A DNA stretch of 64,000 bases from an uncultured Nitrospiraceae bacterium (lineage in GTDB: Bacteria; Nitrospirota; Nitrospiria; Nitrospirales; UBA2166). Below the pieces are notes generated by a model. It had not been told where the DNA came from, made no database searches, and saw only the letters and a list, made by a program, of their open reading frames with translations. A program made the translations under genes and the position numbers. Below, piece after piece: positions 6,537-34,600 of the stretch. The stretch spans positions 155,387 to 219,386 of the forward strand of contig CAYXED010000002.1 of the NCBI GenBank assembly GCA_964463965.1. Direction: 5' to 3'. Every line of letters starts with the position of its first letter. Positions within the stretch are counted from its first letter, which is position 1.

Positions 6537-6563
6537 ATTCCTATATCAAAGGGAACCGATAGA

Positions 6564-7550: not shown

Positions 7551-7560
7551 TAGAAGCTAA

Positions 7561-8124: not shown

Positions 8125-8223
8125 TCGTTGCGATTGTGACACGTACATGGTTAAAAAAATCATTTTTGGAAGGATATGCAGTTTTGGTCTTAGTAATTTC
8201 TAGCGGTCAATGGGGGTAGTCTT

Positions 8224-8892
8224 ATGAGGACAGTAGTGGTAATTTCTCCTCATCCCGATGATGAAACGCTTGGATGTGGTGGCACAATATTGAGGCATGT
8301 TGCTGAGGGGGATTCCGTACATTGGGTTATTGTTACGTGTGTGGCTGAGGAGCTTGGATATACATCCCAGGCAATTACCGATCGTGCCGAAGAAATTCAA
8401 CGTGTTGCGGATTTCTATCGATTTTCAACAGTGACTCAGTTGGGGTTCTTGACTACAAGATTAGATGTAGTGCCGCGTGCAGATATAATTGAAAAGCTAA
8501 GTGATGTTTTTGTAGAAGTTAAGCCGGAAACTCTGTATGTGCCTTACGGAGGTGATGTTCATAGTGATCATGTTGTCGTTGCCGATGCAAGCATTGCATG
8601 CACAAAATCATTTAGGTTTTCATCAGTCAAGCAAGTCAGGGCTTATGAGGTATTATCAGAAACTGAGTTTGGAATTTCTCCCAATGTTCCAGGGTTTCGC
8701 CCAAATCTCTTTATTGATATTGGACCATACCTTGAGAAAAAAATTGAAGTGATGCATCTTTATAAGGGTGAAATGGGAGTGTTGCCATTTCCTCGCTCTG
8801 TAGAGGCTATTCGTGCGCTAGCAACAGTTCGAGGTACTACTTCGGGTTGTTCTTCTGCCGAGGCTTTTATGACTTTGAGAGAAATACTTTAA
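8224..8892 (+). CDS. PIG-L/LmbE-family N-acetylglucosaminyl deacetylase
   Basis: 222 aa with VISPHPDDETLGCGGT and HSDH zinc-ligand motifs. Confidence 0.85.
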   Translation: MRTVVVISPHPDDETLGCGGTILRHVAEGDSVHWVIVTCVAEELGYTSQAITDRAEEIQRVADFYRFSTVTQLGFLTTRLDVVPRADIIEKLSDVFVEVKPETLYVPYGGDVHSDHVVVADASIACTKSFRFSSVKQVRAYEVLSETEFGISPNVPGFRPNLFIDIGPYLEKKIEVMHLYKGEMGVLPFPRSVEAIRALATVRGTTSGCSSAEAFMTLREIL

Positions 8893-8966
8893 AGACATGT
8901 AGTTTAGTAATTCATCTTTTTTCAATTGGTATTTGATTTGCTCATATTACTTCCTACCTTTTTACC

Positions 8967-10013
8967 GTGAATATTCAAAAATCTCATGAAAGTGGATTAG
9001 TCGTTCCTCCTAATATTGCTGGAACCGTTGTGATTGTTGATGGGCTTCCTGGATGTGGAAAAACAATGTTGACGGCAATCATTGGAACGCTGGCAAGAGT
9101 CCAGTTAATGAAATTTAATTATCACTTCGAGCATGTGTGTGCCCTTCATCATCTAAATTTGATTGATGAAAACACGGCAGCTGCATTGCTTCGGATACAA
9201 ACGGATCTTGATTTGCACAACGGCATGATGGCGAGAGATACTAACTTTAGATTTTCTGATTTATCATCCGTTTGGAGTCATTCGAAGGCATTACAGTATC
9301 TTATTCGAGCCTTTGGGCCTGGTGATGCAGCGGTAATTCCTAGAATTCAACGCGAAAACCCTATTTTCCATCTTGCAACGCATGCGGCATTGGGGGTCAG
9401 TGAACCCATATTTGCGGCATTGGGAAATAGGCTTCGTATGGTTGAAGTGGTTCGGCATCCATTGTACATGCTTAAACAGTGGTGTATTTGGATGCCTCGT
9501 GCAGGTGTTGACCCAAGAATGTTTGGCCTTTGGGTTCGGTATGGAAATCATTCGGTCCCCTCTTTTGCACATGGCTGGGAAGACCTTTTTCTCAGGTCAA
9601 ACATTATGGATCGAAGTATCTACGGAATAGAAAATCGATGGAGCCTTGGAGTGAGGCGGCTTAGTCAGCTTTCCGAGGAAGACCGGAGTTTGGTTATGAT
9701 GATTCCGTTTGAGAAATTTGTTATAGATCCAAAGCCTTTTATTCAAAATCTGGAAAACTTTATTGGTACCACAACCACATCCAGTACAAAACGGACAATG
9801 AAACAGCAAAAGGTTCCTAGGACAATGTATGCCGAAGGAGTCGGTTTTAGTATCTACAAACAGTATGGTTGGGAACCGCCAGATCCAGGTGCTACTGAGC
9901 AGCAAGAATTAGATAAGAGGATGGCATTTGCAGAATCAGAAGCGAGTCCTGAGGCATTGGCGGTACTTAAAAGGTTATGTGAGCGTTATGAGGCGGAATA
10001 TCTTCCACAATGA
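8967..10013 (+). CDS. P-loop protein with sulfotransferase-like pattern (tentative)
   Basis: 348 aa. GTG start with no clear RBS. GLPGCGKT lies near the N-terminus. VVRHPL and the C-terminal IPFEKFVIDPKPFIQNLENFIG resemble sulfotransferase PAPS-binding and C-terminal patterns. A kinase is also possible. Confidence 0.4.
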   Translation: MNIQKSHESGLVVPPNIAGTVVIVDGLPGCGKTMLTAIIGTLARVQLMKFNYHFEHVCALHHLNLIDENTAAALLRIQTDLDLHNGMMARDTNFRFSDLSSVWSHSKALQYLIRAFGPGDAAVIPRIQRENPIFHLATHAALGVSEPIFAALGNRLRMVEVVRHPLYMLKQWCIWMPRAGVDPRMFGLWVRYGNHSVPSFAHGWEDLFLRSNIMDRSIYGIENRWSLGVRRLSQLSEEDRSLVMMIPFEKFVIDPKPFIQNLENFIGTTTTSSTKRTMKQQKVPRTMYAEGVGFSIYKQYGWEPPDPGATEQQELDKRMAFAESEASPEALAVLKRLCERYEAEYLPQ

Positions 10014-10112: not shown

Positions 10113-12284
10113 GTGGGTGACAATGTTGTTATGAGTGCGCTCAATATACTAAAGGATGTTCCGCTAAAGGTGTATATCTGCGACCTTACTCATGATACCG
10201 TTGTTTTAGTGTCCGATACTATCCCTATCAATGTTGGGTTTATCGGTGCATATGCGAAGAAAACTCACGGTGATGCCATTGATACGGCTCTGTTTAAATA
10301 CCCTCAAGCAGTTATTGAGGCAATTAAGGCCAATCCTCCAGATGTAATTGCTCTGAGTAATTACTCGTGGAATAGCAGGCTTTCAGAACGTATTGCACGA
10401 TTCGCAAAGGAATGCAACCCTAAAGTGGTTACGGTGCAAGGTGGAACAAACTTTCCTCACACCGAACAGCAGCAGCTTGAATTTTTACGCTCGCGTCCTT
10501 CGACAGATGTGTATGTAGAATTGGAAAGTGAAATGGCGTTTGCAGGGTTGATTTCTAAAATATTAGCTTGTAAGGATTCGAGGGAAACGATTTTTGAGAG
10601 TTTGATCCCCGGATGTGTATTCATCGAGCCTTCGACACGCCATAAGAGTAGCCCAGTTCTTCGCCGAGGGGAGTTGCTTCCACGTTTTGATAATCTCGAT
10701 GATATTCCATCACCTTATCTTACTGGAACACTAGACCATTTTTTTGATGGTCGATTGACACCCTTTATTGAGACTAATCGAGGTTGTCCATTTTTATGTA
10801 CTTTCTGTCACACTGGGGCGGAATATTTTAACAAAACGAAAATGTTTTCTTTTGAACGTGTTGCAGAAGAGATTAACTATATTGCCCCTCGTGTTGCGGA
10901 TCTTGGTATTGTCAATCTTCATCTTGCTGATACAAACTTTGGAATGTATCAACGTGACCGAGAGATTTGTGAGGCATTGCTGAGGAGTCAGGAAACATTT
11001 GGTTGGCCACGACAGATCATGGCTACCACTGGGAAAAATAACAAGGCACGAGTGATAGATATTACGAAAATTATGGGAACAGTGTTTTCGGTTAATATGT
11101 CTGTTCAGTCAATGGATCAAAAGGTATTGTCGAATATTAAACGAGATAATATTCGAATTGAGGATTATACCAAGGTCACTCAACATTTAAATGAAGTTGG
11201 CCGTGCTACAAAAGCAGAACTTATTTCTGGTCTTCCTGGGGAAACCCGTGAATCGTATGTTCGAGGTGTGAAGCAGGTAATGGAGTCAGGAGCGAGTAAT
11301 ATAGGCTCTTATACTTTGATGCTTCTTCATGGGACAGAATTTAAGGAGCCTGAGTATCGTACTAAGTTTGCGATAGAGGGAAAGTATAGGATTGTTCCTC
11401 TCGATTTTGGGGAATATGAAGGTGAGAAGGTTTTTGATACCGAAGAAGTATGTATTGCAACAAATACAATGACATTTGATGATTATGTTTGGATTCGAGG
11501 GTTATGTTTATTTGTTGAGGTTATGCACAATAATAGACCATTTGATGAGTTGATACGATATGGCATTGGTTGTGGGCTTACAAGGTTTGAGATTATTACT
11601 CGCGCGTATGATGAAATTAAAAATTCTCCGGCTCAAGTGCGTGAGATTGTTGATGCGTTTATGGATGAGACTCGTCGAGAATTATGGGATTCTGATGAGG
11701 AATTAATGGCATGGTTTGAGCGTGATGAAAACTATGCGAGGCTTGTTCGAGGCGAAGTTGGTGGGAATCTAATTTATAAATATAAGGCGATGAGTTTAGC
11801 ATTTCATAGTGATGAGTGGGTTGAGTTTCTTAGCTCCATCATCAGGCAACTTGTTCAAGAAATTAGACCTCAACTTGATGCGACGAAGCAATTGGAGCGA
11901 GAACTTGGATTGCTTGTGACATATGTCAAAAATAAACTAGCTGGAATTTTAAATTGTGAGGGGGATGAAGAGCCTCGTTCTATGGAGTCAGGCTTTGATA
12001 TAAAGAAGTGGGTTAAAAGTCCAGAAGGAAGTTCCTTGGAAAGCTTTGCTTTGACGAACTCTCTTACTTATACTTTTGAATATTCTCCAGATCAGTTTGT
12101 GGCCAGGCGAGATTATTTTAAGCGATATGGTACTGATGTTAATGCGTTAAGTAAAATTGTAACTCGCGTCAGTAATGTGGAAAGTCTATTCCGGACGATT
12201 CATGTAAAAAGCTCTGAGGGTACTGCATTAGTTACAGATTACGAACAAAAAGACGAGTTTACTCGGTATACCCTTTTTAACTGA
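10113..12284 (+). CDS. B12-binding-domain radical SAM enzyme (class B)
   Basis: 723 aa. The N-terminal segment is B12-binding-like (DVIALSNYSWN ... VVTVQGG). The 4Fe-4S motif is CPFLCTFC (CxxxCxxC). A C-terminal extension of about 250 aa has no motif I recognise. The start is GTG 10113 or ATG 10131. Confidence 0.85.
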   Translation: MGDNVVMSALNILKDVPLKVYICDLTHDTVVLVSDTIPINVGFIGAYAKKTHGDAIDTALFKYPQAVIEAIKANPPDVIALSNYSWNSRLSERIARFAKECNPKVVTVQGGTNFPHTEQQQLEFLRSRPSTDVYVELESEMAFAGLISKILACKDSRETIFESLIPGCVFIEPSTRHKSSPVLRRGELLPRFDNLDDIPSPYLTGTLDHFFDGRLTPFIETNRGCPFLCTFCHTGAEYFNKTKMFSFERVAEEINYIAPRVADLGIVNLHLADTNFGMYQRDREICEALLRSQETFGWPRQIMATTGKNNKARVIDITKIMGTVFSVNMSVQSMDQKVLSNIKRDNIRIEDYTKVTQHLNEVGRATKAELISGLPGETRESYVRGVKQVMESGASNIGSYTLMLLHGTEFKEPEYRTKFAIEGKYRIVPLDFGEYEGEKVFDTEEVCIATNTMTFDDYVWIRGLCLFVEVMHNNRPFDELIRYGIGCGLTRFEIITRAYDEIKNSPAQVREIVDAFMDETRRELWDSDEELMAWFERDENYARLVRGEVGGNLIYKYKAMSLAFHSDEWVEFLSSIIRQLVQEIRPQLDATKQLERELGLLVTYVKNKLAGILNCEGDEEPRSMESGFDIKKWVKSPEGSSLESFALTNSLTYTFEYSPDQFVARRDYFKRYGTDVNALSKIVTRVSNVESLFRTIHVKSSEGTALVTDYEQKDEFTRYTLFN

Positions 12285-12446: not shown

Positions 12447-13565
12447 GTGGTTGCTTGCTACGAGAAACCTCTCTGCAGTCTGATGTTGAAAATGGATGAA
12501 AATTACCTTAAGGAAGTTAACTCTATTCAATTTTCCGGACGTGCTGTCGGTTCAGGTTTTCCATGTTTTATTATTGCTGAAGCGGGCGTAAATCATAATG
12601 GTAGTCTTGATATGGCAAGACAGCTAATTGATGCAGCGGCAGAAGCCGGTGCAGATGCAGTGAAGTTCCAGACCTTTAATGCGGAGAAACTTGTTGGTTC
12701 TGGAGTATCAAAAGCAGAATATCAATTGAAAACAACAGACCCAGATGAGTCACAGTTGACAATGTTGCGTCGCCTTGAATTTTCAATGGATTCGCACCGT
12801 GTTTTGCGTGACTATAGTGATGAAAAAGGCATTCTTTTCTTGTCAACGCCATTTGACCAAGAGTCTGTGGATCTTCTTGATCAGTTGGGTATACCTGTTT
12901 TCAAGATCAGCTCTGGGGATATTACTAATTGGCCTCTCTTAAAATATATTGCTAAGAAGGGGAAGCCTATTATTCTCTCTACTGGAATGTCTTATCTTGA
13001 AGAGGTCAGTGAAGCTATACGTTTAATTTTTGAAACAGGTAATGATCAAGTAAGTGTGTTGCACTGTGTTTCGAATTACCCTGCGAATCCTGAGGATATA
13101 AACTTACAAGCAATGGCAACGATGGCAAAGTCCTTTCGTCTTCCCGTGGGTTATTCAGACCATACTTTAGGCATTGAAATTTCGTTTGCTGCGGTAGCAT
13201 GTGGAGCGTGTATTATTGAAAAGCACTTCACGTTAGATAGGGCGCTGCCAGGGCCGGACCATGCTATCTCCATATTACCTCAGGAGCTTGCAGCGTTAAC
13301 CCGTGGGGTGAGGTTGATTTCAGGCGCATTAGGCAATGGCGAAAAAATTCCAGCAAAAAGCGAAAAAAAATCTCGTGAGGTTGCTAGAAGAAGCTTGGTG
13401 GCCTCTTGTGATATTGCACCTGGCACTGTCATTGAAGAGCCGATGATTCTGTGCATGCGACCTGGTACTGGGCTATCTCCAATATATTGTGATTGGGTTA
13501 TTGGGCGGAGAGCTAAGGTCAAGATTATGGCTAATCAGTTGATAGCAAGAGAAATGTTCGAATGA
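12447..13565 (+). CDS. neuB: N-acetylneuraminate/legionaminate synthase family (NeuB/LegI-like), canonical paralogue
   Basis: FIIAEAGVNHNGSLDMA, KFQTF, GYSDHTLG and EKHFTLDR are present, with a C-terminal SAF-like domain. The maximal ORF starts at GTG 12447. ATG 12483 or 12492 is the more likely true start. Confidence 0.9.
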   Translation: MVACYEKPLCSLMLKMDENYLKEVNSIQFSGRAVGSGFPCFIIAEAGVNHNGSLDMARQLIDAAAEAGADAVKFQTFNAEKLVGSGVSKAEYQLKTTDPDESQLTMLRRLEFSMDSHRVLRDYSDEKGILFLSTPFDQESVDLLDQLGIPVFKISSGDITNWPLLKYIAKKGKPIILSTGMSYLEEVSEAIRLIFETGNDQVSVLHCVSNYPANPEDINLQAMATMAKSFRLPVGYSDHTLGIEISFAAVACGACIIEKHFTLDRALPGPDHAISILPQELAALTRGVRLISGALGNGEKIPAKSEKKSREVARRSLVASCDIAPGTVIEEPMILCMRPGTGLSPIYCDWVIGRRAKVKIMANQLIAREMFE

Positions 13566-14473
13566 ATATTCTAATAGAGGCCGCAGGGAGTAAGGTTTGG
13601 GGAACTCTTTTGCCTTACTTGAGAACCGTTTCAAGTAAAATTGTTGGATTAGATATTGATGCGTTTTCGTGTGGACTCTATATGGTCAATCAAGGATATG
13701 TGGTTCCACGATATGATGAGGTGGGATGTTTCGAAAAAATACTTAAAATTTGCAGAAATGAAAAGATTGAATTGGTTCTTCCCTCAATTAATGAAGGGTT
13801 GCTGGAGTGGGCAAAGCAGCGCGTTTCTCTCCAAAGGGAGGGAATTAAGGTCTTAATATCTCCACCTGAATCTATTGCAATATGTCAGGATAAGTGGGAG
13901 ACGTATCAATTTTTTTCTGACAATAAAATTCCAACCCCGCCTACCTCGCTTAGGCATGAATATGATCTTGTGAAGCCTCGAATAGGGCGAGGGGGAACTG
14001 GGATTGAACGTATTAGCCCCACCAAAAAAATTAATATGGAAGGATATATCTCGCAGCAATTTATCAATGGTGAAGAGTTTTCGGTTGATGCCTTGTGCGA
14101 TTTTGATGGAAATGTTGTTTATGTTGTGCCACGAAAGCGACTTGCTGTTGAATCTGGGCTTTCTGTGAAAGGTCAAGTCGTAAATGATTCAGAGATTGAA
14201 ATGTATGTTCGGAAAATTTTAAGCTTAACCCCTTTTATTGGTCCCATTGATATTCAATGTTTTAAAGTTGACTCTGATATATTTTTTACTGAGATAAACC
14301 CTCGTATTGCAGGTGGATTGTCTCTTTCAATGGCCGCAACTGAAAACTGGTTTGAGGCAGTTGTGGAGATGGGGAAGGGAGTTTCTATTAATCCTGTTAA
14401 GGTCAATTATGGTTTACTCACAATGAGATACCTATCTGACTGCATAATCCATGAACGCGATTTACTTTTATGA
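13562..14473 (+). CDS. ATP-grasp family ligase
   Basis: 303 aa with KPRIGRGGTGI, EFSVDAL and TEINPRIAGG. The start makes an ATGA overlap with the upstream stop. Confidence 0.8.
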   Translation: MNILIEAAGSKVWGTLLPYLRTVSSKIVGLDIDAFSCGLYMVNQGYVVPRYDEVGCFEKILKICRNEKIELVLPSINEGLLEWAKQRVSLQREGIKVLISPPESIAICQDKWETYQFFSDNKIPTPPTSLRHEYDLVKPRIGRGGTGIERISPTKKINMEGYISQQFINGEEFSVDALCDFDGNVVYVVPRKRLAVESGLSVKGQVVNDSEIEMYVRKILSLTPFIGPIDIQCFKVDSDIFFTEINPRIAGGLSLSMAATENWFEAVVEMGKGVSINPVKVNYGLLTMRYLSDCIIHERDLLL

Positions 14474-15159
14474 TTCTTGCTGCAGGTTTTGACCTAGATG
14501 ATACGTTATATGAGCACCAGCAGTATATTGAAGGTGCCTATTGGGACATTGCTTTGGAAGTTGAGAGGAGAAAGGGTATTTCAGGTAAGAAGTTTTTTAA
14601 GCGTATTTTGTCTGATTGGACAAAGCTTACTAGTCAATCTAATACTATTTTTTCGAAAGCCTTGTCAGATTATAATATTTATTCTTTGGAACTTGAATCC
14701 GACTTACTGAATGTTTATCGTGCACATGAGCCGACACTGACACCTTACCCCGGCGTTGTTCAGGGGTTGCAAGAGTTAAAAAATAAAGGGGTTCGTCTTG
14801 GTTTACTTACGGATGGACAGCTTCAAGTCCAGCAACGTAAGCTGAATGTTTTAGGTTTGGAACAATTTTTTGATGTAAAAGTGTATACCGGAAGTTTCGG
14901 GGTTGATTTTTATAAACCCCATCCTCGGGGGTTTCAAAGTCTTGTAGCTGGCCTTAAAGTGCCTTTTGGAAAAATTGCGTATTTAGGAGACAATCCGTCA
15001 ACGGATTTCCAAGTGCCTAAGGAAATTGGTATGCAAACAATACGTTTACAGACGGGGCAGTATAAAAATCTTAAGTTGAACGCGCATTCTGTTGATCAAG
15101 TATTCTCGAGTATCTCTCAAGCAATCCATTGGTTGATTGAAAATAAAGGAACAGCTTGA
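14470..15159 (+). CDS. HAD-superfamily hydrolase/phosphatase
   Basis: 229 aa with FDLDDTLY (DxDxT), LLTDG and GDNPSTD. Confidence 0.85.
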   Translation: MILAAGFDLDDTLYEHQQYIEGAYWDIALEVERRKGISGKKFFKRILSDWTKLTSQSNTIFSKALSDYNIYSLELESDLLNVYRAHEPTLTPYPGVVQGLQELKNKGVRLGLLTDGQLQVQQRKLNVLGLEQFFDVKVYTGSFGVDFYKPHPRGFQSLVAGLKVPFGKIAYLGDNPSTDFQVPKEIGMQTIRLQTGQYKNLKLNAHSVDQVFSSISQAIHWLIENKGTA

Positions 15160-15160
15160 T

Positions 15161-16330
15161 ATGAGGAAGCGTAAGTTAGTTGTTGCTTTGACGGGTATTC
15201 GCTCAGAGTATGATATTTTTTTCTCGCCTTTAAAAGCCATTCATGAGCATCCTGATTTGGAGCTTCGCCTTATAGTTGCAGGCGCACACTTGGCTTCACG
15301 TTATGGAATGACGGTAAGGCAAATTGAAGAAGATGGGTTTTCTATTGCAGAGCGAATTGAAAGTTTGCTTGATTCTGATACTTCAAGTGGACGAATAAAA
15401 TCTGCAACTGTTGAATTAATGGGTGTAGTCAGTGCACTAGACCGGTTAAATCCTGATTATCTTTTAGTATGTGGTGACAGAGAAGAAGCAATAGTAGGCG
15501 CTTTGGCAGGAGCATACATGAATATTGCTGTTGCACACATTGGTGGTGGGGATGTGGTAGTTGGAAATGTAGATGATTCTGTTCGTCATGCTGTTACGAA
15601 GCTATCGCACTTGCACTTTGCATTCAGCAAAAACAGTGCGGACAGAATTTGCTCTATGGGAGAAGAATCTTGGCGTGTGCATCTTGTGGGTAATCCTGCT
15701 TTAGACCGCTTTGGTGTACTCCCTAAGTTGTCGCGAAAAGAGTTGAGTGATCGCTTGCATTTTGATGTTACAAAGGCTCCGGTTTTATTGGTTATACAGC
15801 ATAATATTAGCAGTGAAATTGAGAGTTCTGGCGTTCAAATGCAAACTACGATAGAAGCTATTAAAGAACTAGGGTATCCGACCTTGCTAAGCTATCCAAA
15901 TTCTGATGCTGGAAGTCGTGATATTATTAAGGTTATTGATGAACGTGCAAGGCATTTGCCTAATGTCAAGGTCTACCAAAGTCTTCCAAGGCTTGAGTTT
16001 GTTAATCTTTTACAAATAGCAGATGTATTGATAGGGAATTCAAGTTTGGGGCTTCTTGAAGCGCCATTTTTAAAGCTTCCCGCAGTGAACGTAGGCAATA
16101 GGCAGAAAAAGCGGGAACATGCCGATAATGTTTTATTTGTCTCTCACGATAAAGAAGCCATAAAAGAGTCTGTCAATATGGCATTGCATGATTCAAAGTT
16201 TCTTCAGCGGCTTAATGCGTGCTCGTGTCCATTTGGTGATGGGAAGGCTGGTCAGAAGATTGCAAGCGTGCTTGCAAAAACTGAGCTTGCTCCCGTACTC
16301 GTGAATAAAGATTGGGCATTTAAAGTATAA
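15161..16330 (+). CDS. neuC: UDP/GDP-N-acetylglucosamine-type 2-epimerase (hydrolysing), NeuC/LegG-like
   Basis: TGIRSEYDI, CGDREE, HIGGGD and IGNSS give the family pattern. ATG 15161 is preceded by aaagga. The track ORF starts at TTG 15137, inside the upstream gene. Confidence 0.85.
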   Translation: MRKRKLVVALTGIRSEYDIFFSPLKAIHEHPDLELRLIVAGAHLASRYGMTVRQIEEDGFSIAERIESLLDSDTSSGRIKSATVELMGVVSALDRLNPDYLLVCGDREEAIVGALAGAYMNIAVAHIGGGDVVVGNVDDSVRHAVTKLSHLHFAFSKNSADRICSMGEESWRVHLVGNPALDRFGVLPKLSRKELSDRLHFDVTKAPVLLVIQHNISSEIESSGVQMQTTIEAIKELGYPTLLSYPNSDAGSRDIIKVIDERARHLPNVKVYQSLPRLEFVNLLQIADVLIGNSSLGLLEAPFLKLPAVNVGNRQKKREHADNVLFVSHDKEAIKESVNMALHDSKFLQRLNACSCPFGDGKAGQKIASVLAKTELAPVLVNKDWAFKV

Positions 16331-19247: not shown

Positions 19248-19277
19248 GTTGATAATCTGAATTAAAATGTGAAGAGT

Positions 19278-20111
19278 ATGAGTAAAACTGCATTTGATCT
19301 TACAGAAAAAACTGCTTTGGTAGTCGGGGGTAATGGGTTTCTCGGATGTCGTTTGTGTAACGAATTAATTCAGCACGGTGCCACAGTATATGCGGCAGAT
19401 TTGCGCGAATCATCTTTGGCGGCTTCTCGAGATGACTCCCTTGTCCTTGAAAAGAAGGTTTTGCAACGCACAGTTGATGTTGCTGATTCGACGTCGGTGG
19501 TCAATCTTGTTGATGGGATTATCGAAGAGGCAAAGAAGATTGATATTCTTGTTTACAGTGTTACCGCAAAGCCGCACGATTTTTATAAACCGTTTACAGA
19601 GTGTTCACTTGAAGGTTGGCAATCTCTTATGCGTATGGAGTTGGATGGGCTTTTTCTCATTTCAAAGCATGTCGGGAAGTATATGGAGGCTGCAGGTGAA
19701 GGTAGTATGGTTTTTCTTTCCTCCATCTATGGGATAGTTGGTAATGATCAGAGAATATATGAAGAGGCAAATCTTGCAACATTGTATGCTGGTATAGATA
19801 AGGATGAGGCAAAAAAAATCTACTCGCATGCGGGATATGCCGTTGCCAAAGGAGGAGTTATCGCTCTAACGCGCTTTCTTGCAGCGTACTGGGGAAAGGC
19901 TGGAATTAGAGTGAACTGTGTTTCTCCAGGAGGCATTTCGCATCCAGGGGAAGATGATGGCTTTGTTCAGCGTTATTCGTTTCGAGTGCCGATGGGCCGT
20001 AAGGGGTTGCCTTCAGAGGTTGGAGGTGCAGTTGTGTACTTATCATCGAATGCCGCTAGTTACGTGACAGGTCACAACCTTGTAGTAGATGGTGGGTGGA
20101 CATCCTGGTAA
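19278..20111 (+). CDS. Short-chain dehydrogenase/reductase
   Basis: VVGGNGFLGCRL and catalytic YAVAKGG. GTG 19269 is a possible alternative start. Confidence 0.85.
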   Translation: MSKTAFDLTEKTALVVGGNGFLGCRLCNELIQHGATVYAADLRESSLAASRDDSLVLEKKVLQRTVDVADSTSVVNLVDGIIEEAKKIDILVYSVTAKPHDFYKPFTECSLEGWQSLMRMELDGLFLISKHVGKYMEAAGEGSMVFLSSIYGIVGNDQRIYEEANLATLYAGIDKDEAKKIYSHAGYAVAKGGVIALTRFLAAYWGKAGIRVNCVSPGGISHPGEDDGFVQRYSFRVPMGRKGLPSEVGGAVVYLSSNAASYVTGHNLVVDGGWTSW

Positions 20112-20174
20112 TTATTATTGTTGGTTTTTGAATTTGTGGTTGCTAGGTACTTTTTTCTCTAGCACGTTGTTTTC

Positions 20175-20846
20175 TTGCATGTACTTTTGGAGAACTTTTT
20201 GAAGAATATAACTGCTGACTGTGTGATTTTAGGAGGTGGTGGGCATGCAGCTGTTATTCTCGATGCTATTCATGCTAGCGTCGGAAGTCTTTCGTGTGTT
20301 GTGCTAGATAAAAATCGCGATCATTGGGGAACAAAATTTTTAAATGTTGAAATCCTTGGAGACGATACCTTATTGCCAGAGTTGCTTGAGGCGGGTGTTT
20401 TGAGTTTTATTGTTGGAGTTGGAGGAGTAGGGGACAATCAGTTGCGGAAAGATTTATTTGAGCAAGGAGTTAGGCATGGATTGAAACCTATGATGGTGCA
20501 GCATCCAGCAGCAGTTCGATCTGAATGGGCCACAATTGATGCTGGGACTGTTCTTCTTGCAACATCAGTTGTTGGGCCAAGGGCAATCATTGGAGAAAAT
20601 GTGATTGTCAATACTGGAGCGATTGTTGAACATGATTGTCAAGTTGGTGATCATGCGCACATATCTATTGGTGCTCAGCTGGCAAGTGCGGTGCATGTTG
20701 GGTCAATGGCTCATGTCGGAGTTGGTGCTTCTGTAAGGCAAAGTGTTTCAATTGGAGAGGGAGCTATTGTTGGAGCTGGAGCAGTGGTTGTAAAAGATGT
20801 TGCTGATTGGAGCACTGTTTGTGGTGTTCCAGCTGATGTTATCTAG
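20175..20846 (+). CDS. PglD/NeuD/LegH-family sugar N-acetyltransferase (left-handed beta-helix)
   Basis: N-terminal ILGGGGHAAVILDAI domain followed by hexapeptide repeats (IGENVIVNTGAIVEHDCQVGDHAHISIGAQL...). The TTG start is uncertain. Confidence 0.8.
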   Translation: MHVLLENFLKNITADCVILGGGGHAAVILDAIHASVGSLSCVVLDKNRDHWGTKFLNVEILGDDTLLPELLEAGVLSFIVGVGGVGDNQLRKDLFEQGVRHGLKPMMVQHPAAVRSEWATIDAGTVLLATSVVGPRAIIGENVIVNTGAIVEHDCQVGDHAHISIGAQLASAVHVGSMAHVGVGASVRQSVSIGEGAIVGAGAVVVKDVADWSTVCGVPADVI

Positions 20847-20961
20847 TAAGGTATTATGAGGAAATATTATTATGGTAAGGCGTTATATTTATGCTTCCTT
20901 TCAGGGTGTTATGTAGGATATATGTTGCAGGATCAGTCTATTCCCAACAGAGGAGGCTCTA

Positions 20962-21663
20962 ATGCCTGGAAGTGAAGTGGATCTGGCAAAACGCTGGAAC
21001 CAAGTGTACAGCGAAAAACATATGACAAACTGGTATCCTAGCTATGATATCTTACGTTTTTGTTCAAAATTTATTCAAAAGCGTCTCACCTATGATACCT
21101 ATGATGTGAAAAAAAATGTAAAAAGTGTTCTTGATCTTGGTTCGGGAAATGGGCGGCATGTAATTTTTTTTGCAAATCAAGGATTTGAAGTTTCAGGCAT
21201 TGATATTTCTGATGATGCTATCAAGCTTTCAAAAGAGTGGTGTGCAAGAGAAGGCTTAGATGCTGATTGTCGCGTTGGAGATATCACTCACCTTCCTTAT
21301 AAAGATGCTTCGTTTGATCTTGTTGTTTCACATGGGGTTTTGGACCATGTTCATATGAGTGATGCTTGCTCTGCGGTAAACGAGGTAAACAGGGTGTTGA
21401 CTCCTTCAGGACTATTCTACTGTGATCTCAGAGGCACAGAGGACTTTGAGTTTGAGATTGGCGAAAAAATTTCATTCAATACATTTATGATCCCAGAAGG
21501 TTTTGAAAAGGGGCTGATTCAGCATTTTTTTTCATTGAAGGAAGTGCATGAGTTATTTGATGAGCATTTCAAGATAATCTATATTGAAAAAAGTGAACAT
21601 GTGTATGGCCCTGATTTTACAAAAAGAAATTCTCGGTGGATAGTTGGGGCTCAGAAACTGTGA
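20962..21663 (+). CDS. Class I SAM-dependent methyltransferase
   Basis: 233 aa with VLDLGSGNGRH motif I and DLVVSHGVLDH. gaggagg RBS upstream. Confidence 0.85.
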   Translation: MPGSEVDLAKRWNQVYSEKHMTNWYPSYDILRFCSKFIQKRLTYDTYDVKKNVKSVLDLGSGNGRHVIFFANQGFEVSGIDISDDAIKLSKEWCAREGLDADCRVGDITHLPYKDASFDLVVSHGVLDHVHMSDACSAVNEVNRVLTPSGLFYCDLRGTEDFEFEIGEKISFNTFMIPEGFEKGLIQHFFSLKEVHELFDEHFKIIYIEKSEHVYGPDFTKRNSRWIVGAQKL

Positions 21664-21801
21664 TCTCCGTAGCTAAACAACAGTAGAAATAGACCAATTC
21701 AATAATTTTTCAAGTGGCTTTACCATGATTTCTATATTTAGCCGCTCTGCACGCCTTAATTAGCTGTATTTTTTAAGTGATTATTTAAAGAGGAAATTAG
21801 T

Positions 21802-22950
21802 ATGGCAAGATACGTTGCAATGATCCCAGCTCGTTTGGGAAGTAAGCGTGTTAAAAAGAAAAACTTGAGGCTTTTGGGTGAGAAGCCATTAATTGCGTAT
21901 GCAATTGAAGTTGCCTGTGCATCAAGGGCTTTTGATGAAGTATATGTGAATTCTGAATCAGAAGTTTTTAAGGAAATAGCAGAGCGATATGGCGCAAAGT
22001 TTTATCAGCGCCCAGTAGAATTTTCAACTGATCACGCAACAAACGATGGTTTTGCTCAGGAATTCATGGATAATGTAATGTGCGATGTTTTAGTTCAAAT
22101 TAACCCTACGTCTCCTTTTATTGGAGTGGAGGATATTCAAAAGGCAAAGGCGTTATTTGAACAAGATGGCTACGATACTGTTTTGTCAGTCAAAGAACTT
22201 CGTATTGAAGGGTTACTAAAAAATACGCCATTGAACTTTAATCCCAAACAACAGATGCCTCCTTCGCAAGACCTTGAACCGCTATATGTATTTTGTAATG
22301 GTATCTTAGCGTGGAGAACGGAAATATTTCTCAAAAATATGAAGGAATATGGTTGTGCGGTCTATGGGGGAGAAGGGAAAACGGGGTACTGTGTTTTAAG
22401 TGGTGATGCAACGCTGGATATTGATGAAGGTAGCGATTTTTCTCAAGCAGAACTTGTTTTAGAGAGGCGAAGGCAGCGAGTGCTGCCTGCCCGCTATTGG
22501 GATTGTGGTGACTCTCCTGGAGAGCACTCTGAGACAACTGTTGGAGATATCCTAAAAAAAGATGGAGTTGTAAAAATTGATTTAGAGGATGTAAATCACG
22601 AGATCACGAACATTCCAAAGTTGTTGTCTGATGGGAGTAATGCTAGGTCGTGGAGTAAGCGAATTATCAATTCGAAGAGCAATTGCGTAACTTTAATTAG
22701 TCAAATGCCTGGAGATGGGAACAGATTGCACTACCATTATGATTGGGATGAATGGTGGTTTATTCTTGAAGGAGAATGGGAATACGAAGTAGAAGAAAAA
22801 ATACATCGTGTTAGTCAAGGTGATGTAGTGTTTATTGAGCGCAACCGATTGCATAAAGTAACAGCTAAAGGAGCATCGAGAGCCGTTCGCATGGCGGTCA
22901 GTTTTGATGGCGTGGCTCACGTGTATCCTGCTGAAGAAGAGACTGTATAG
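21802..22950 (+). CDS. Fusion protein: acylneuraminate cytidylyltransferase (NeuA/LegF-like) plus C-terminal cupin domain
   Basis: 382 aa with N-terminal AMIPARLGSKRVKKKNL. The C-terminal ~100 aa carry cupin motifs HYHYDWDEWWFILEGEWEY and FIERNRLHKV. Confidence 0.8.
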   Translation: MARYVAMIPARLGSKRVKKKNLRLLGEKPLIAYAIEVACASRAFDEVYVNSESEVFKEIAERYGAKFYQRPVEFSTDHATNDGFAQEFMDNVMCDVLVQINPTSPFIGVEDIQKAKALFEQDGYDTVLSVKELRIEGLLKNTPLNFNPKQQMPPSQDLEPLYVFCNGILAWRTEIFLKNMKEYGCAVYGGEGKTGYCVLSGDATLDIDEGSDFSQAELVLERRRQRVLPARYWDCGDSPGEHSETTVGDILKKDGVVKIDLEDVNHEITNIPKLLSDGSNARSWSKRIINSKSNCVTLISQMPGDGNRLHYHYDWDEWWFILEGEWEYEVEEKIHRVSQGDVVFIERNRLHKVTAKGASRAVRMAVSFDGVAHVYPAEEETV

Positions 22951-22983: not shown

Positions 22984-24213
22984 GTGAGCATAGTTATGCA
23001 TAGAACCAGCATGTTTAACCTCAAATTGGATATCTCTAAGAGCCATGGATCTTTTTTATTTGATATCAATCAACAAGAAGAACTACTTGACCTTTTTGGT
23101 CTTTATTCCTCTTTGCCACTAGGTTACAACCATCTTATTTTTAAAAACCAAGAGTTTCGTGAAGCTATTCTTCTGTCTGCCAATGTCAAAGTTCCAAATT
23201 GTGAACTGGATACGCCAGAGGCGGAAAAATTTTTACACGAATTTACTACACATCCTTCCATGCGGGACTTTTCATTTTTTCATTTTTCATGCACTGGGGC
23301 ATTAGCTATTGAAGCCTCTATTAAGACTGCTATTGATTATAAGAGGGCTTCAGATCCACAAATAATTACCTTTAAGGGAAGTTTCCATGGGATCAATAGT
23401 TATGGAGGGTTTTTAACTGATCGCTCTGGAAGTTCGAGTCGACGATTAGAAGGTATGCCGGGTGGTCTTTTTGGAGAACCACTGCCTAATCCTGTAATGT
23501 CGTGTCGTGATGGACAACTATTTGTTGATGACTCTTTAACGGATAGAACTTTGGAGGAAGTTGAATTCCGTTTTCGAAGAGATGAGCAGTCGATATGTGC
23601 TGTTCTTCTTGAACCTATTCAATGTACTGCAGGCGATCTTCTTTTTGATCTTCGGTTTCTTAAAGGAATACGCGATTTATGCAGTCAGTTTAATGTTCCT
23701 CTGATTTTTGATGAGGTTCAAACTGGATTTGGGGGCACTGGGACCATGTGGTACTTTGAACAATGTGGTATCGTCCCTGATATTGTTGTTTTTGGAAAAA
23801 AGTCACAGGTATCAGGGATTATGGTAAGGGAACAATTTGGAGAAATATTTAAAAATGCTCTTCGGCTGGAAGTCACATGGGATGGTGATCTTCTTGATAT
23901 GATTAGGTGTCGTTGGATTCTTCAGGCGTTTCAGAAATTTAATATTTTAGAGAATGTGATATCTCGTGGTAAGCAGTTAGGGACTGCTCTTCGAGAGATA
24001 GCATCTGTTGAAAATGTCCGTCAGGTTGGACTCCTTATCGCTTTTGATTTCAAGGATACTGGAGTTCGTGATGAGTACGTACGTTCAATGAGACATCATA
24101 AAACCATAGTTTTGCCGACGCAAGAAAAGTCAATTAGATGGAGGCCTAACCTTGCGATGACTGATGCGGAGGCAAAACTCGCGATTTCTCGTTCAGCAAA
24201 ATGTTATTCTTGA
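22984..24213 (+). CDS. Class III PLP-dependent aminotransferase (lysine 6-aminotransferase-like subgroup)
   Basis: 409 aa with LLEPIQCTAGD, FDEVQTGFGGTG and a PLP-lysine context FGKKSQVSG. The start is GTG 22984 or ATG 22996. Confidence 0.8.
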   Translation: MSIVMHRTSMFNLKLDISKSHGSFLFDINQQEELLDLFGLYSSLPLGYNHLIFKNQEFREAILLSANVKVPNCELDTPEAEKFLHEFTTHPSMRDFSFFHFSCTGALAIEASIKTAIDYKRASDPQIITFKGSFHGINSYGGFLTDRSGSSSRRLEGMPGGLFGEPLPNPVMSCRDGQLFVDDSLTDRTLEEVEFRFRRDEQSICAVLLEPIQCTAGDLLFDLRFLKGIRDLCSQFNVPLIFDEVQTGFGGTGTMWYFEQCGIVPDIVVFGKKSQVSGIMVREQFGEIFKNALRLEVTWDGDLLDMIRCRWILQAFQKFNILENVISRGKQLGTALREIASVENVRQVGLLIAFDFKDTGVRDEYVRSMRHHKTIVLPTQEKSIRWRPNLAMTDAEAKLAISRSAKCYS

Positions 24214-24235
24214 CGCTTCATGCTTGGAGAGAGTG

Positions 24236-25321
24236 ATGCTTCCTAAAGGAATTCAGAGCATTTCTGAGCTTTGTGTGCCTCCTACCTTCTCCGTTCGAGA
24301 GGTGATGGAGCAGATGAATGTGACACGTGTCGGCATCGCTTTGGTTGTTGTTGAGGATGATGTACTTGTAGGTACCGTCACCGATGGTGATTTACGGAGA
24401 GCTATGCTTGCATCTGTAGATTTTGATGGATCTGTCCAGCAGTTATTGGATAGAAAATCACTTGCAGGAACCTCAGATCCCGTTGTTGCACAGGTTGGAA
24501 TTTCTCATGCCGGTTTGCTCGCGATGTTGCAGGAGTCATGTGTTAGTCACTTACCTATTGTCGATGTGAAAATACGTGTGGTTGGGCTTGCTACTCGAAG
24601 TGAGTTTTTGCCTGACCCTACTGTAAAAACACAGGCAGTGATTATGGCAGGTGGATTTGGAACACGTCTTCAGCCACTCTGTGATGAAATTCCAAAACCC
24701 ATGCTTCCTGTTGGTGAGCGCCCCTTGATGGAGCTGATCATTGAACGTTTACGAGACTCTGGAATTAAGCAAGTCAATGTAAGTACCCATTATAAGAGGG
24801 AAAAAATTATGTCTCACTTCGGAAATGGAGGAGACTTTGGTGTTGAAATATCATATGTCGAGGAAGACAGCCCACTTGGAACTGCTGGGGCAATTGGTCT
24901 TATGAAGACTCCCGAGGAAACGTTGCTTGTGATGAACGGTGATATTCTCACTCACGTTGATTTTCGTGCGATGTCATTTTTTCATCAAGAGCACAAAGCT
25001 GACTTTACAGTTGCAGTTCGTGCGTATGATGTTGAAGTCCCCTATGGCGTTATTGAATGTGAAGATATTTGGGCATTTGCATTGACTGAAAAACCCAAAC
25101 AAACACATTTTATTAATGCGGGAATTTATTTGTTGGAGCCTGTGGTTCATCAATATATCCCCAAAGGGCGTCATTTTGACATGACCGATCTAATTCAATG
25201 TTTAATTACGAACAAAAAGCGTGTAGCAACTTTCCCTATTCAAGAGTACTGGGTTGATATTGGACAGCACGCTGATTATGCGAGGGCTAAAGAATATATT
25301 GAGGGAAAGGGTACTTTGTAG
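24236..25321 (+). CDS. ptmE: CBS-domain sugar-1-phosphate nucleotidyltransferase (PtmE-like, probable GDP-sugar forming)
   Basis: N-terminal CBS pair (VGTVTDGDLRRAM, HLPIVD) and C-terminal AVIMAGGFGTRLQPL. ATG 24236 is preceded by ggagag. The track's 5' extension overlaps the upstream gene. Confidence 0.7.
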   Translation: MLPKGIQSISELCVPPTFSVREVMEQMNVTRVGIALVVVEDDVLVGTVTDGDLRRAMLASVDFDGSVQQLLDRKSLAGTSDPVVAQVGISHAGLLAMLQESCVSHLPIVDVKIRVVGLATRSEFLPDPTVKTQAVIMAGGFGTRLQPLCDEIPKPMLPVGERPLMELIIERLRDSGIKQVNVSTHYKREKIMSHFGNGGDFGVEISYVEEDSPLGTAGAIGLMKTPEETLLVMNGDILTHVDFRAMSFFHQEHKADFTVAVRAYDVEVPYGVIECEDIWAFALTEKPKQTHFINAGIYLLEPVVHQYIPKGRHFDMTDLIQCLITNKKRVATFPIQEYWVDIGQHADYARAKEYIEGKGTL

Positions 25322-25346
25322 GGGTTAATTATAGCCAAGGGATGCA

Positions 25347-26351
25347 ATGGTTGTGACTGGAGATATAAAAGAGCTTATTGGTAAATCTGTCCTAGTGACT
25401 GGGGGAGGAGGGTTTATTGGAAGTCATTTGGTTGAGCAGCTTGTTGAGCTTGGCGTAAAGACACGTGCTTTTGTTCACTACAGAAGTGATGGGTCATGGG
25501 GTTGGCTCGATCAGTCTCCATGTAAAGATGACGTTGAAGTAATTGCGGGAGACTTACGTGATCGTGACAATGTAGCCACTGCAGTGAAAAATGTTGATAT
25601 TGTGTATCATTTGGCAGCATTAATTGCGATTCCATATTCCTATAGTTCACCTGGCTCATTTATACAGGCAAATGTTGAGGGTACCTTTAATATTGTTCAG
25701 GCTTGTCGAGACTTTAATATTCAGAAAATGATTCATACATCCACAAGCGAAGTGTATGGTACGGCTCAGCGTGTGCCGATTGATGAAATGCATCCGTTGC
25801 AGGCACAATCCCCATATGCAGCAAGCAAAATTGCTGCCGATAAGATTGTAGAATCATTTCATCTCTCATTTGGACTACCAACAATTACAGTACGTCCCTT
25901 CAATACATTTGGTCCCCGTCAGTCTTCTAGGGCAGTAATTCCAACTATCATTGCTCAGGCATTGACCAGTGAAAAAATTCGGCTGGGGAATGTTCATCCC
26001 ACGCGGGATTTGAATTATGTGGCAAATACTGTTGATGGTTTTGTGCGTGCGGCTTTGAGCAAGAGTGGAGTTGGCTGGACAGTAAACCTTGGATCTGGAG
26101 TTGAGGTGAGTGTTGGGGATCTTGCTAAGATGATTTCACGCCTTGTGGGAAAAGAAGCGGTTATTGAAGTCGATGAGCAACGTGTCCGTCCACAAAGAAG
26201 TGAGGTTGATCGGTTGCTTGCTGACAACGCTCTAGCACAATCAAAACTGAAGTGGAAACCTGTTGTTTCTCTAGAGCAAGGGCTGATTAATACAATTGAA
26301 TGGATGCGTAAGTATATAGATAAATATCGCCCATCTTCGTACGTTGTATGA
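25347..26351 (+). CDS. legB: NAD-dependent nucleotide-sugar 4,6-dehydratase (LegB-like extended SDR)
   Basis: 334 aa with VTGGGGFIGSHLV, STSEVYG and YAASKIAADK. It sits between the PtmE-like and LegC-like genes. Confidence 0.75.
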   Translation: MVVTGDIKELIGKSVLVTGGGGFIGSHLVEQLVELGVKTRAFVHYRSDGSWGWLDQSPCKDDVEVIAGDLRDRDNVATAVKNVDIVYHLAALIAIPYSYSSPGSFIQANVEGTFNIVQACRDFNIQKMIHTSTSEVYGTAQRVPIDEMHPLQAQSPYAASKIAADKIVESFHLSFGLPTITVRPFNTFGPRQSSRAVIPTIIAQALTSEKIRLGNVHPTRDLNYVANTVDGFVRAALSKSGVGWTVNLGSGVEVSVGDLAKMISRLVGKEAVIEVDEQRVRPQRSEVDRLLADNALAQSKLKWKPVVSLEQGLINTIEWMRKYIDKYRPSSYVV

Positions 26352-27539
26352 ATGCCTGAGAAGTCAATGCCTCACACAAAAATTCCCTTGAGTGCTCCAG
26401 AGCTCAGTGGTAATGAATGGAAATATGTCAAGGAAGGTCTTGATTCTGGCTGGGTATCATCTGTTGGACCTTTTGTTGATCGGTTTGAATCAGAATTAGC
26501 TCAATATGTTGACGTAGCGCATGCTGTGGCTATGGTAAATGGAACGGCCGCACTCCATATAGCTTTACAAGTTATAGGGGTGAAGCCTGACGACGAGGTT
26601 CTTGTTTCCAATCTCACATTTATCTCCCCTGTAAACGCAATACGATATTGTCAGGCACATCCAGTACTTATGGATGTACATCCTGATACGTGGCAGATAG
26701 ACCACAATAAACTAGATGAGTTTTTAGAGCATAATTGTGAAATTAGAGGAGATGAATGTTTTAACCGTTTATCTGGGAGACGTGTTCGTGCAATTCTTCC
26801 CGTTCATATTCTTGGACTTGCTTGTGAAATTGATGTGATCATGAATATTGCAAAACGTTATCATTTGCATGTTTTAGAAGATGCAGCTGAGGGTATGGGG
26901 GTACGCTACCGTGGACGGCATGTAGGTACCTTTGGGGATATAGGCGTGTTTAGTTTTAATGGGAATAAAATTATGACTACTGGTGGGGGGGGGATGCTCG
27001 TCACCAATGATGAAGAGAAAGCTAAACATGCACGCTACTTATCAACGCAGGCAAAGGATAACCTAGTCGAATCTATACATAATTGTGTTGGGTATAACTA
27101 CAGATTAACTAATATCCAGGCCTGTATTGGTGTAGCTCAACTAGAGCAGCTTGATGAGTTTGTCTCAAAAAAACGCACTATTGCTTCACAATATAGTGAG
27201 GCATTTCGAGAGCTACCGCAGGTGTATGTCATGCCTTCCCCTCCGCATACAGAACCAAGCTACTGGTTATATACAATTCTTCTCGGAGAATCTTTTAGGA
27301 TCGAAGATCGTAAGGCTATTATTGAGAGGTTGAATCGGAGTGGAATTTCTGCAAGACCGTTATGGCATACGATTCACAACCTTAGGCCATACCGTAATTG
27401 CCTTTCTTATAAAGTTCAATGTTCTGTGGCATTATATGAACGAGGAATTAGTCTTCCCTCAAGTGTTAGTCTTAAACAGCACGAAGTTGCTGCCTGTATT
27501 GATGCTGTTCACGACAGTGTCAAATCTCTTTTAACTTAA
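26352..27539 (+). CDS. legC: DegT/DnrJ/EryC1-family aminotransferase (LegC-like)
   Basis: 395 aa with the PLP lysine in FSFNGNKIMTTGGGGM. The start codon directly abuts the upstream stop. Confidence 0.75.
   Translation: MPEKSMPHTKIPLSAPELSGNEWKYVKEGLDSGWVSSVGPFVDRFESELAQYVDVAHAVAMVNGTAALHIALQVIGVKPDDEVLVSNLTFISPVNAIRYCQAHPVLMDVHPDTWQIDHNKLDEFLEHNCEIRGDECFNRLSGRRVRAILPVHILGLACEIDVIMNIAKRYHLHVLEDAAEGMGVRYRGRHVGTFGDIGVFSFNGNKIMTTGGGGMLVTNDEEKAKHARYLSTQAKDNLVESIHNCVGYNYRLTNIQACIGVAQLEQLDEFVSKKRTIASQYSEAFRELPQVYVMPSPPHTEPSYWLYTILLGESFRIEDRKAIIERLNRSGISARPLWHTIHNLRPYRNCLSYKVQCSVALYERGISLPSSVSLKQHEVAACIDAVHDSVKSLLT
26985..26993 (+). repeat. G9 homopolymer inside the LegC-like coding sequence
   Basis: Direct count gives ggt ggg ggg ggg, encoding GGGG of TTGGGGM. 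It is the longest G/C run I found in the window. Confidence 0.95.
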
Positions 27540-31807: not shown

Positions 31808-31830
31808 CATATGGGTATGAGTAGATAATT

Positions 31831-33639: not shown

Positions 33640-33666
33640 AAACGTGCCTGGTTCTCAGCTACTGTT

Positions 33667-34513: not shown

Positions 34514-34600
34514 ATATGATAATGTTTAATCGATCTACTCACATTTTTGGCTTTTGGCTATTTATGCAGATTGGCTATGGGATGGTAGAGGTATAGATAC

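Follow-up and report, generated by a model that had tools for sequence, protein, structure and literature searches.

A clade of TokK/CysS-like cobalamin radical SAM enzymes encoded among legionaminic-acid-type surface sugar genes

The radical SAM gene and its closest relatives

The gene discussed here lies at 10113..12284 (+) of a 64,000-nucleotide stretch of DNA from an uncultured Nitrospiraceae bacterium (the window below always means this whole stretch) and codes for a 723-aa protein that Pfam, NCBIfam, phmmer and fold comparisons place next to TokK and CysS, i.e. among those radical S-adenosylmethionine (SAM) enzymes that depend on cobalamin. The protein belongs to a new, widespread clade of TokK/CysS-like enzymes, and its conserved setting points to an undescribed carbon-methylated sugar of the legionaminic acid type. 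The open reading frame (ORF) has a GTG start; its seventh codon, an in-frame ATG (nt 10131), would be equally plausible, since the alignments with homologues begin only at residue 13-17. More than 120 database proteins are 53-68% identical to the query over 98% of its length, and the mean column identity across 25 orthologues is 67%, C-terminus included, which shows that the ORF is a real gene under strong constraint. A scan for promoters and terminators around the gene gave counts at or below the shuffled expectation.

The first-pass annotation of this DNA had described a 723-aa ORF with a B12-binding N-terminus and the cluster motif CPFLCTFC, and both Pfam domains are indeed found above their cut-offs. 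The N-terminal, Rossmann-type cobalamin-binding domain (aa 31-146, 10203..10550, +) matches PF02310 with 41.7 bits (cut-off 32.1), and its fold matches the corresponding domains of TokK, CysS and TsrM; the radical SAM core (aa 220-381, 10770..11255, +) matches PF04055 with 53.1 bits (gathering cut-off 29.5). CPFLCTFC (aa 225-232, 10785..10808, +), which is followed by a clade-specific H233-T234-G235, is the sole CxxxCxxC in the protein. Its cysteines C225, C229 and C232 are the only ones invariant among the 25 orthologues, therefore no auxiliary cluster is present. As a DxHxxG motif has no match in the 723 residues, cobalamin is expected to bind in the base-off/His-off form, as in TokK. Beyond aa 381 no Pfam family rises above noise.

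Profile, sequence and fold lead to the same small group of relatives. The top NCBIfam profile is the KedN5 family of methylcobalamin-dependent radical SAM C-methyltransferases (NF033712; 211.1 bits against a curated whole-protein cut-off of 700, E 2e-62), which aligns to aa 67-414 only and leaves the C-terminal third of the query unaligned. The solved structures closest by sequence (phmmer) are those of TokK (1.2e-47, aa 73-492) and CysS (3e-31), the next one being AprD4 at 8e-4; the query is 32% identical to TokK over 399 positions and 30% identical to CysS over 260 aa, the two being 36% identical to each other. An AlphaFold model built from the alignment of the 25 orthologues reached a mean predicted local distance difference test score (pLDDT) of 85.8 and a predicted template modelling score (pTM) of 0.85, with most of the C-terminal region at pLDDT 80-95. 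Foldseek superposes this model on TokK over ~730 columns (E 4e-37, template modelling (TM) score 0.71-0.77) and on CysS over ~720 columns (E 1e-32, TM 0.64-0.76). TsrM is next with TM 0.41, and TsrM, MgmA, OxsB and AprD4 all fall between TM 0.35 and 0.44. Because the superposition extends over the full length, the C-terminal ~250 residues (aa ~470-723, 11520..12281, +), which are conserved among the orthologues, are in the model the third domain that has so far been seen only in TokK and CysS. This region had at first been taken as motif-less; the description still holds for Pfam families, but not for the fold. In TokK the third domain forms the substrate channel together with the other two domains (10.1101/2021.07.10.451909), and its modelled counterpart in the query probably acts as a substrate-channel or cap domain.

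We therefore assign the protein with high confidence to the class B radical SAM enzymes with TokK/ThnK/CysS architecture; the class had already been proposed in the first-pass annotation, and the two domains above cut-off, the nearest relatives TokK and CysS and the top KedN5 profile all agree with it. TokK and ThnK, the sequential methylases of carbapenem C6 in Streptomyces (PDB 7KDX/7KDY), have the three-domain architecture in common with the query, and CysS, the iterative methylase of cystobactamid (PDB 9N1B-D), has the same type of C-terminal domain. The differences are also clear. TokK is some 40-60 aa shorter and acts on a pantetheinylated carbapenam within an antibiotic cluster, and CysS extends the aryl O-methyl group of a carrier-tethered aminobenzoate, whereas the query gene sits in a surface-sugar cluster. 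In a neighbor-joining tree all sequences from glycan loci are separate from TokK and CysS, and the orthologue clade is monophyletic. An exhaustive search of 1.84 billion cluster representatives returned 1437 relatives (E <= 1e-30), of which more than 150 are full-length; the clade spans hundreds of 50%-identity clusters, and the more than 120 database proteins mentioned above are all annotated as 'radical SAM protein'.

The residues around the cofactor are kept. In TokK, Trp76 lies under the corrin ring and Trp215 in the active site, and among the methylases compared both are common only to TokK, ThnK and CysS (10.1101/2021.07.10.451909). Trp76 corresponds to W86 of the query (codon 10368..10370, +) in the phmmer alignment, where ALSCYVWN of TokK is matched by ALSNYSWN, and W86 is invariant in the 25 orthologues and present in 21 of 22 mid-tier and 29 of 36 low-tier relatives from glycan loci. 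Other scaffold positions common with TokK are Y84 and N87 (Y84-x-W86-N87), ETNRGC, D273-x-N275, K308-N309, Q332, E369 and E377-T378; the CysS fragment (residues 117-380) keeps every one of these that it covers, Y-x-W-N lying outside the fragment. As judged from the aligned residues, the query combines the cofactor and catalytic scaffold of a TokK-type methylase with a different pocket.

Gene neighbourhood in the window and in other genomes

The radical SAM gene, the only one in the window, is part of a co-directional run from nt 4 to 60223 that consists entirely of surface-glycan biosynthesis genes, and it ends 163 nt 5' of a NeuB-family synthase. The gene order given by the first-pass annotation, i.e. 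the gene standing directly before NeuB1, ATP-grasp, HAD and NeuC, is confirmed, with the NeuB and NeuC profiles above their cut-offs. All genes named in this paragraph are on the + strand. NeuB1 (12447..13565), a nonulosonic acid synthase of the NeuB/LegI type (Pfam NeuB 326 bits; TIGR03569 447 bits, cut-off 400), is followed by an ATP-grasp ligase (13562-14473), a HAD hydrolase (14470-15159) and a NeuC/LegG-type hydrolysing 2-epimerase (15137..16330; TIGR03568 385 bits, cut-off 236). Further downstream are a second, divergent NeuB (16459-17484; TIGR03569 223 bits against the cut-off of 400), a cytidylyltransferase::Gfo/Idh/MocA fusion (17481-19247) and, at 19269..22950, an SDR, a NeuD/PglD-type N-acetyltransferase, a class I SAM methyltransferase and a cytidylyltransferase::cupin fusion (21802-22950). 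A CBS-nucleotidyltransferase (PtmE-like), a nucleoside diphosphate (NDP)-sugar 4,6-dehydratase (LegB-like) and a DegT aminotransferase (LegC-like) follow at 24164..27539; these are early steps typical of the guanosine diphosphate (GDP)-sugar route to legionaminic acid, and the same set also flanks orthologues. The gene set of a cluster of the legionaminic acid (Leg) type, namely NeuB, NeuC, cytidine monophosphate (CMP)-transferase, 4,6-dehydratase, DegT, PglD/NeuD and CBS-nucleotidyltransferase, is thus found in the window between 12.4 and 27.5 kb. With every canonical Leg step already encoded next to it, the radical SAM gene appears as an add-on. On the 5' side its immediate neighbours are a 348-aa protein with a P-loop-like GLPGCGKT (8967..10013; no Pfam or NCBIfam match), which has homologues in locus L002 (46%) and, two genes 5' of the orthologue, in L008 (43%), and before it a PIG-L family N-deacetylase (8224..8892), a homologue of which is found near the orthologue in L005 and L006. 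A third cytidylyltransferase gene besides the two fusions is located at 36273-37052, and together with the second NeuB the three genes indicate that the island probably makes more than one CMP-activated ulosonic acid.

In order to compare settings, 79 genome loci (from the best 80 of 581 genome matches, down to 31% identity) and the contigs of six database homologues were searched with the window's own proteins. A metagenome scan with the query protein alone yielded four loci including a duplicate of L003, too few for statistics. At >= 48% identity, the level taken as orthology, there are 24 distinct loci, 15 of which have NeuB within 10 kb; among the 13 with full 10-kb flanks on both sides it is 10. 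This is the co-occurrence with NeuB that the first-pass annotation had suggested looking for. A second clade, at 35-40% identity and mostly from Acidobacteriota, comprises 23 loci; 12 of them have NeuB at this distance, and in five it is only 142-470 bp from the radical SAM gene. At <= 34% identity the number drops to 2 of 39 loci, and a Pfam census of 104 immediate neighbours in this tier found mostly NDP-sugar epimerases/dehydratases, GT2/GT4 glycosyltransferases, nucleotidyltransferases, Wzz and further radical SAM proteins.

The NeuB-positive orthologue loci also contain NeuC, CMP-transferase, CBS-nucleotidyltransferase, 4,6-dehydratase, DegT, a PglD-type acetyltransferase and an SDR/Gfo pair, a combination that corresponds to the GDP-sugar route to legionaminic acid; L002, L005-L009, L012, L015 and L092 are orthologue loci with the Leg set. 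The carriers are Nitrospirota, Deltaproteobacteria, Sulfuritalea, SAR324, Magnetovibrio, Omnitrophota, Elusimicrobia and SAR11, i.e. at least eight phylum-level lineages. Neighbour clustering finds a single gene set that the orthologue loci have in common, the Leg core, and minor partners recur in a few of them (PIG-L in 3, the 348-aa P-loop protein in 3, the AroB-like cassette described below in 2). The genes directly next to the orthologue vary: NeuC and PIG-L in L005, DegT and CMP-transferase in L009 and L037, and a Gfo/CMP-transferase/SDR trio in L092. The first-pass annotation had also considered that orthologues might turn up in porphyrin or lipid settings; none of the examined loci of orthologues or of more distant relatives is of this kind, and the Leg-type clusters recur across the lineages named above.

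Two further observations concern these loci. In L093:8000-15000 the orthologue (58% identity) is surrounded by transposases, an integrase and a piece of a DegT gene, and an intact sugar cluster is lacking, which is evidence that the radical SAM gene moves with mobile DNA. Additional radical SAM genes stand beside the orthologue at L007:12170-14101 (-), L014:3274-5241 and 7935-9965, L092:1534-3111 and 19566-21158, and L009:123-1976. Those of L007, L014 and L092 have B12-binding and Radical_SAM domains and the one of L009 has Radical_SAM only; the proteins from L007 and L014:7935-9965 belong to a different subfamily, with PhpK/BchE as best models. Their presence in Leg-type clusters suggests multi-step radical tailoring.

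The SAR11 loci deserve separate mention. SAR11 bacteria are usually regarded as making little use of B12. In four loci from SAR11 single-cell genomes a TonB-dependent receptor of 615-651 aa is encoded directly 5' of the orthologue (L014:5502-7845, L018:7474-9953, L017:1087-3527, L011:7861-9807). The top matches of these receptors are BtuB (PDB 1NQF, 4e-15; TIGR01779 109-179 bits, below the cut-off), and in three of the four loci the receptor is followed by a DUF6580 membrane protein of 161-164 aa, for which a PDB sequence search gave no match. Receptor and orthologue look like a B12 uptake-plus-enzyme module, and the BtuB-like receptor may be taken as indirect support for cobalamin use by the enzyme.

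Predicted reaction, substrate and rival explanations

In our reading, which we would give a probability of roughly 55%, the gene encodes a C-methylase that acts on a carbon within the nonulosonic acid pathway, as an accessory tailoring step of a legionaminic-acid-type sugar. The first-pass annotation had cautiously proposed radical tailoring of a sugar or of its N-acyl group, a proposal supported in as much as every computational test agrees with it. Domain content, motifs, similarity of fold and the conserved neighbourhood are observed; that the enzyme uses cobalamin and transfers methyl groups, and to which site of which substrate, is what we infer. By analogy, the [4Fe-4S] cluster on C225, C229 and C232 would cleave SAM reductively to a 5'-deoxyadenosyl radical, which would take a hydrogen from an sp3 carbon of the substrate. 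The substrate radical would then receive a methyl group from methylcobalamin, held base-off over W86 by the N-terminal Rossmann domain, and a second SAM would re-methylate cob(I)alamin. The C-terminal domain would make up the substrate channel with the other two domains. Iterative alkylation is plausible, as the three closest characterised relatives all add at least two methyl groups in sequence.

With respect to the substrate, the accessory genes of other systems are instructive. PtmG/PtmH of C. jejuni and the deacetylase and formyltransferase of Kuenenia are, like the radical SAM gene, encoded among the leg core genes, and they act at the nucleotide-sugar level. A 2026 preprint reports that deacetylation, formylation and methylation of these sugars occur on the CMP-sugar and that Kuenenia has genes for a deacetylase and a formyltransferase inserted into its leg cluster, a pattern that the PIG-L gene, two genes 5' of the radical SAM gene, fits. 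In view of this precedent and of the position of PIG-L, the nonulosonic acid or a nucleotide-linked precursor is most probably the substrate. The methylated site could be an N-acetyl or N-acetimidoyl methyl, an O- or N-methyl, or a backbone carbon such as C9 or C3. The N-acetyl/acetimidoyl methyl is possible as the site chemically closest to the C-H alpha to an amide carbonyl that TokK attacks, an O- or N-methyl would be analogous to CysS/KedN5, and the C9 methyl or C3 methylene are possible as well. A link to the FkbH-acyl carrier protein (ACP) system of the window was considered and rejected, the ACP and FkbH-like genes being absent from all orthologue loci; the lack of conservation with the gene also argues against a carrier-tethered acyl substrate.

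Chemical precedents come from other subgroups of class B. GenK carries out a cobalamin-dependent radical SAM methylation of the carbinol carbon of an aminoglycoside sugar, and Fom3 methylates a CMP-linked phosphonate, i.e. a cytidylylated substrate. Such chemistry is analogous to acting on a CMP-nonulosonate. Both enzymes are absent from the significant sequence or fold matches of the query, and both lack the TokK-type Trp according to the alignment in the TokK paper (10.1101/2021.07.10.451909).

As far as we are aware, all known tailoring of legionaminic and pseudaminic acids is polar chemistry on N or O: acetimidoylation, N- and O-methylation, formylation and acylation. The literature we searched describes neither a radical or cobalamin enzyme nor C-methylation in legionaminic or pseudaminic tailoring. 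Literature searches found no paper that links radical SAM enzymes with nonulosonic acid pathways; the titles and abstracts of papers on radical SAM and pseudaminic or legionaminic acid show no connection, and a broader search combining O-antigen, capsule or flagellin glycosylation with radical SAM brought up nothing relevant. The searches, with no precedent found, are in line with the earlier statement that no class B member is characterised in nonulosonic acid or O-antigen pathways. A review from 2026 on B12 radical SAM enzymes uses none of the terms glycan, sugar, polysaccharide or sialic.

Several points weigh against a C-methylase of the nonulosonic acid pathway and need to be discussed. 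We know of no legionaminic or pseudaminic acid derivative that requires C-methylation. The substrates of TokK and CysS are pantetheinylated compounds, not sugars, and some class B radical SAM enzymes (OxsB, AprD4, BchE) do not methylate. Neighbour clustering revealed no specific partner gene that would fix the pathway step. Three orthologue loci with full flanks (L011, L091, L093) have no NeuB within 10 kb; L011 is a SAR11 locus, and in L091 genes for a CBS-nucleotidyltransferase, a member of the CMP-transferase family, a HisH/HisF-like amidotransferase and a formyltransferase are nevertheless present. The KedN5 score is far from what membership of NF033712 takes. Finally, the pocket differs: Trp215 of TokK, two residues after the third cluster cysteine, is T234 in the query, and Arg280, which anchors the substrate carboxylate in TokK, is M303. 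CysS has Trp at the former position, and Thr is found there in all 15 sequences of the orthologue tier, with E or Q in the other glycan-locus clades. It follows from the two replacements that the substrate pocket of the query cannot be deduced from TokK, and from these together with the KedN5 score that the protein is better filed as TokK-type-like than as a member of a named family. At positions 233/234 the orthologues have H-T, the middle tier H-E and the distant tier V-Q, and at position 303 these three groups have M, F and D, respectively; such a clade-specific pocket on a constant scaffold is as expected of one enzyme type adapted to different glycan substrates.

It is conceivable, even though we consider it unlikely, that the methylase acts on another component of the same glycan island, such as a derivative of a hexose or heptose, a cyclitol made by the AroB-like cassette or an acyl or aminoacyl side chain that is yet to be attached, the linkage to NeuB then being mere shared membership of the island. 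The ~60-kb island does hold an AroB-related cyclase, FkbH-ACP, GmhA-like and ATP-grasp genes and several glycosyltransferases, the SDR/AroB-like/GFO trio adjoins the orthologue in SAR324 locus L008, distant relatives occur in polysaccharide loci without NeuB, and the substrates of TokK and CysS are tethered to a carrier arm. On the other hand, the genes common to most orthologue loci are the Leg core genes only; the ACP/FkbH genes of the window are missing from them and the AroB-like cassette is present in just 2 of 24. A non-methylating reaction of the B12/radical SAM scaffold on a sugar, be it a rearrangement or ring contraction as in OxsB, a dehydration or deoxygenation as in AprD4, an epimerisation or the formation of a C-C bond, seems decidedly improbable to us. 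OxsB, AprD4 and BchE are among the weaker matches and the pocket residues are unlike those of TokK and CysS, but the closest relatives by sequence, profile and fold (TokK, CysS, the KedN5 family) are all C-methylases, the Y-x-W-N motif at the cobalamin face, specific to the TokK/ThnK/CysS group, is kept, and OxsB and AprD4 match far worse (TM 0.37-0.44).

That the enzyme has nothing to do with glycans, being a phosphonate P-methylase or a porphyrin, hopanoid or lipid enzyme that is here by chance, is very improbable and close to refuted. The weak NCBIfam matches to PhpK (58 bits), BchE (49.5 bits) and HpnJ/HpnR from which the idea derives lie far below their cut-offs and far below KedN5, no phosphonate, porphyrin or hopanoid genes are found in the window or near the orthologues, and the synteny with NeuB is kept across phyla. 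Methylation of phosphorus in the manner of PhpK was rejected on the same grounds (58 bits against a cut-off of 600, no phosphonate genes).

Returning to C-methylation within the nonulosonic acid pathway, ulosonic acids larger by CH2 do exist. CMP-activated ulosonic acids with an extended carbon backbone were reported from Magnetospirillum gryphiswaldense, with a C10 marker at m/z 311.10 (297.09 for legionaminic and pseudaminic acid) and parent ions spaced by CH2, and no gene was assigned to them (SugarBase preprint, 10.64898/2026.04.20.719630). A direct link of the enzyme to these acids is not supported, as the best 80 of 581 genome matches, down to 31% identity, do not include a locus from Magnetospirillum, and for this reason we use the preprint only as precedent that such acids occur. 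Another possible route to C10 sugars is the condensation of a heptose derivative by NeuB; the window has GmhA-like genes and the divergent second NeuB, which are relevant to this route.

If the enzyme is a C-methylase as proposed, many uncultured and marine bacteria would display carbon-alkylated nonulosonic acids that are invisible to current structure databases, with a bearing on phage recognition, grazing, and surface charge or hydrophobicity. The TokK/ThnK/CysS group, so far found only in antibiotic pathways and on carrier-tethered substrates, would extend to nucleotide sugars and glycans, and the enzymes would be a concrete candidate route to the +CH2 ulosonic acids of environmental bacteria. 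Given the link between receptor and enzyme in the SAR11 single-cell genomes, the supply of B12 could have an influence on cell-surface chemistry in the ocean. Going further, we speculate, and this is a tentative idea with the odds against it, that the clade as a whole carries out radical C-alkylation of CMP-activated nonulosonic acids, maybe repeatedly on one carbon, which would give carbon-extended or branched ulosonic acids new to glycobiology. If this were true, the products would fall in the same chemical space as the C10-marker acids of M. gryphiswaldense (10.64898/2026.04.20.719630), many abundant environmental bacteria, among them SAR11 with its own BtuB-like receptor, would possess the enzyme, and surface-glycan diversity would be tied to the availability of vitamin B12.

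Further features of the glycan island

The remaining parts of the island contain several cassettes. At 4769-8124 there are an SDR, an AroB-related 'cyclizing sugar phosphate phospholyase' (TIGR04425 460 bits, cut-off 400), a Gfo/Idh/MocA oxidoreductase and a GmhA-like SIS protein, which may form a cyclitol or carbasugar branch of the glycan pathway; the SDR/AroB-like/Gfo trio is the one that in SAR324 locus L008 stands directly 3' of the orthologue. An acyl-side-chain module at 30626-36135 consists of a MaoC-dehydratase::SDR fusion, an FkbH-domain/GNAT protein (TIGR01686 323 bits), an ACP-like ORF of 79 aa (33667-33906), a hexapeptide acyltransferase and two SDRs. The genes at 43147-46227 code for a GmhA-like SIS protein, a transaldolase/FSA-family protein, a nucleotidyltransferase and an NDP-sugar 4,6-dehydratase-like protein; they are a possible NDP-heptose or deoxyheptose branch and as such bear on the alternative route to C10 ulosonic acids.

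Three large proteins have no family match: a multi-pass membrane-like protein of 650 aa (2804-4756), one of 695 aa (27565-29652) and one of 539 aa (41518-43137). All three are candidates for a glycosyltransferase or polymerase that acts on the unusual sugar, and L002 codes for a homologue of the 695-aa protein (39% identity) that likewise comes after the DegT gene. The end of the ~60-kb co-directional island is marked by UvrA on the opposite strand (60254-62893, -), whose closest named relatives are from Nitrospira/Nitrospirota (67-68% identity) and which is 78-82% identical to metagenomic proteins.

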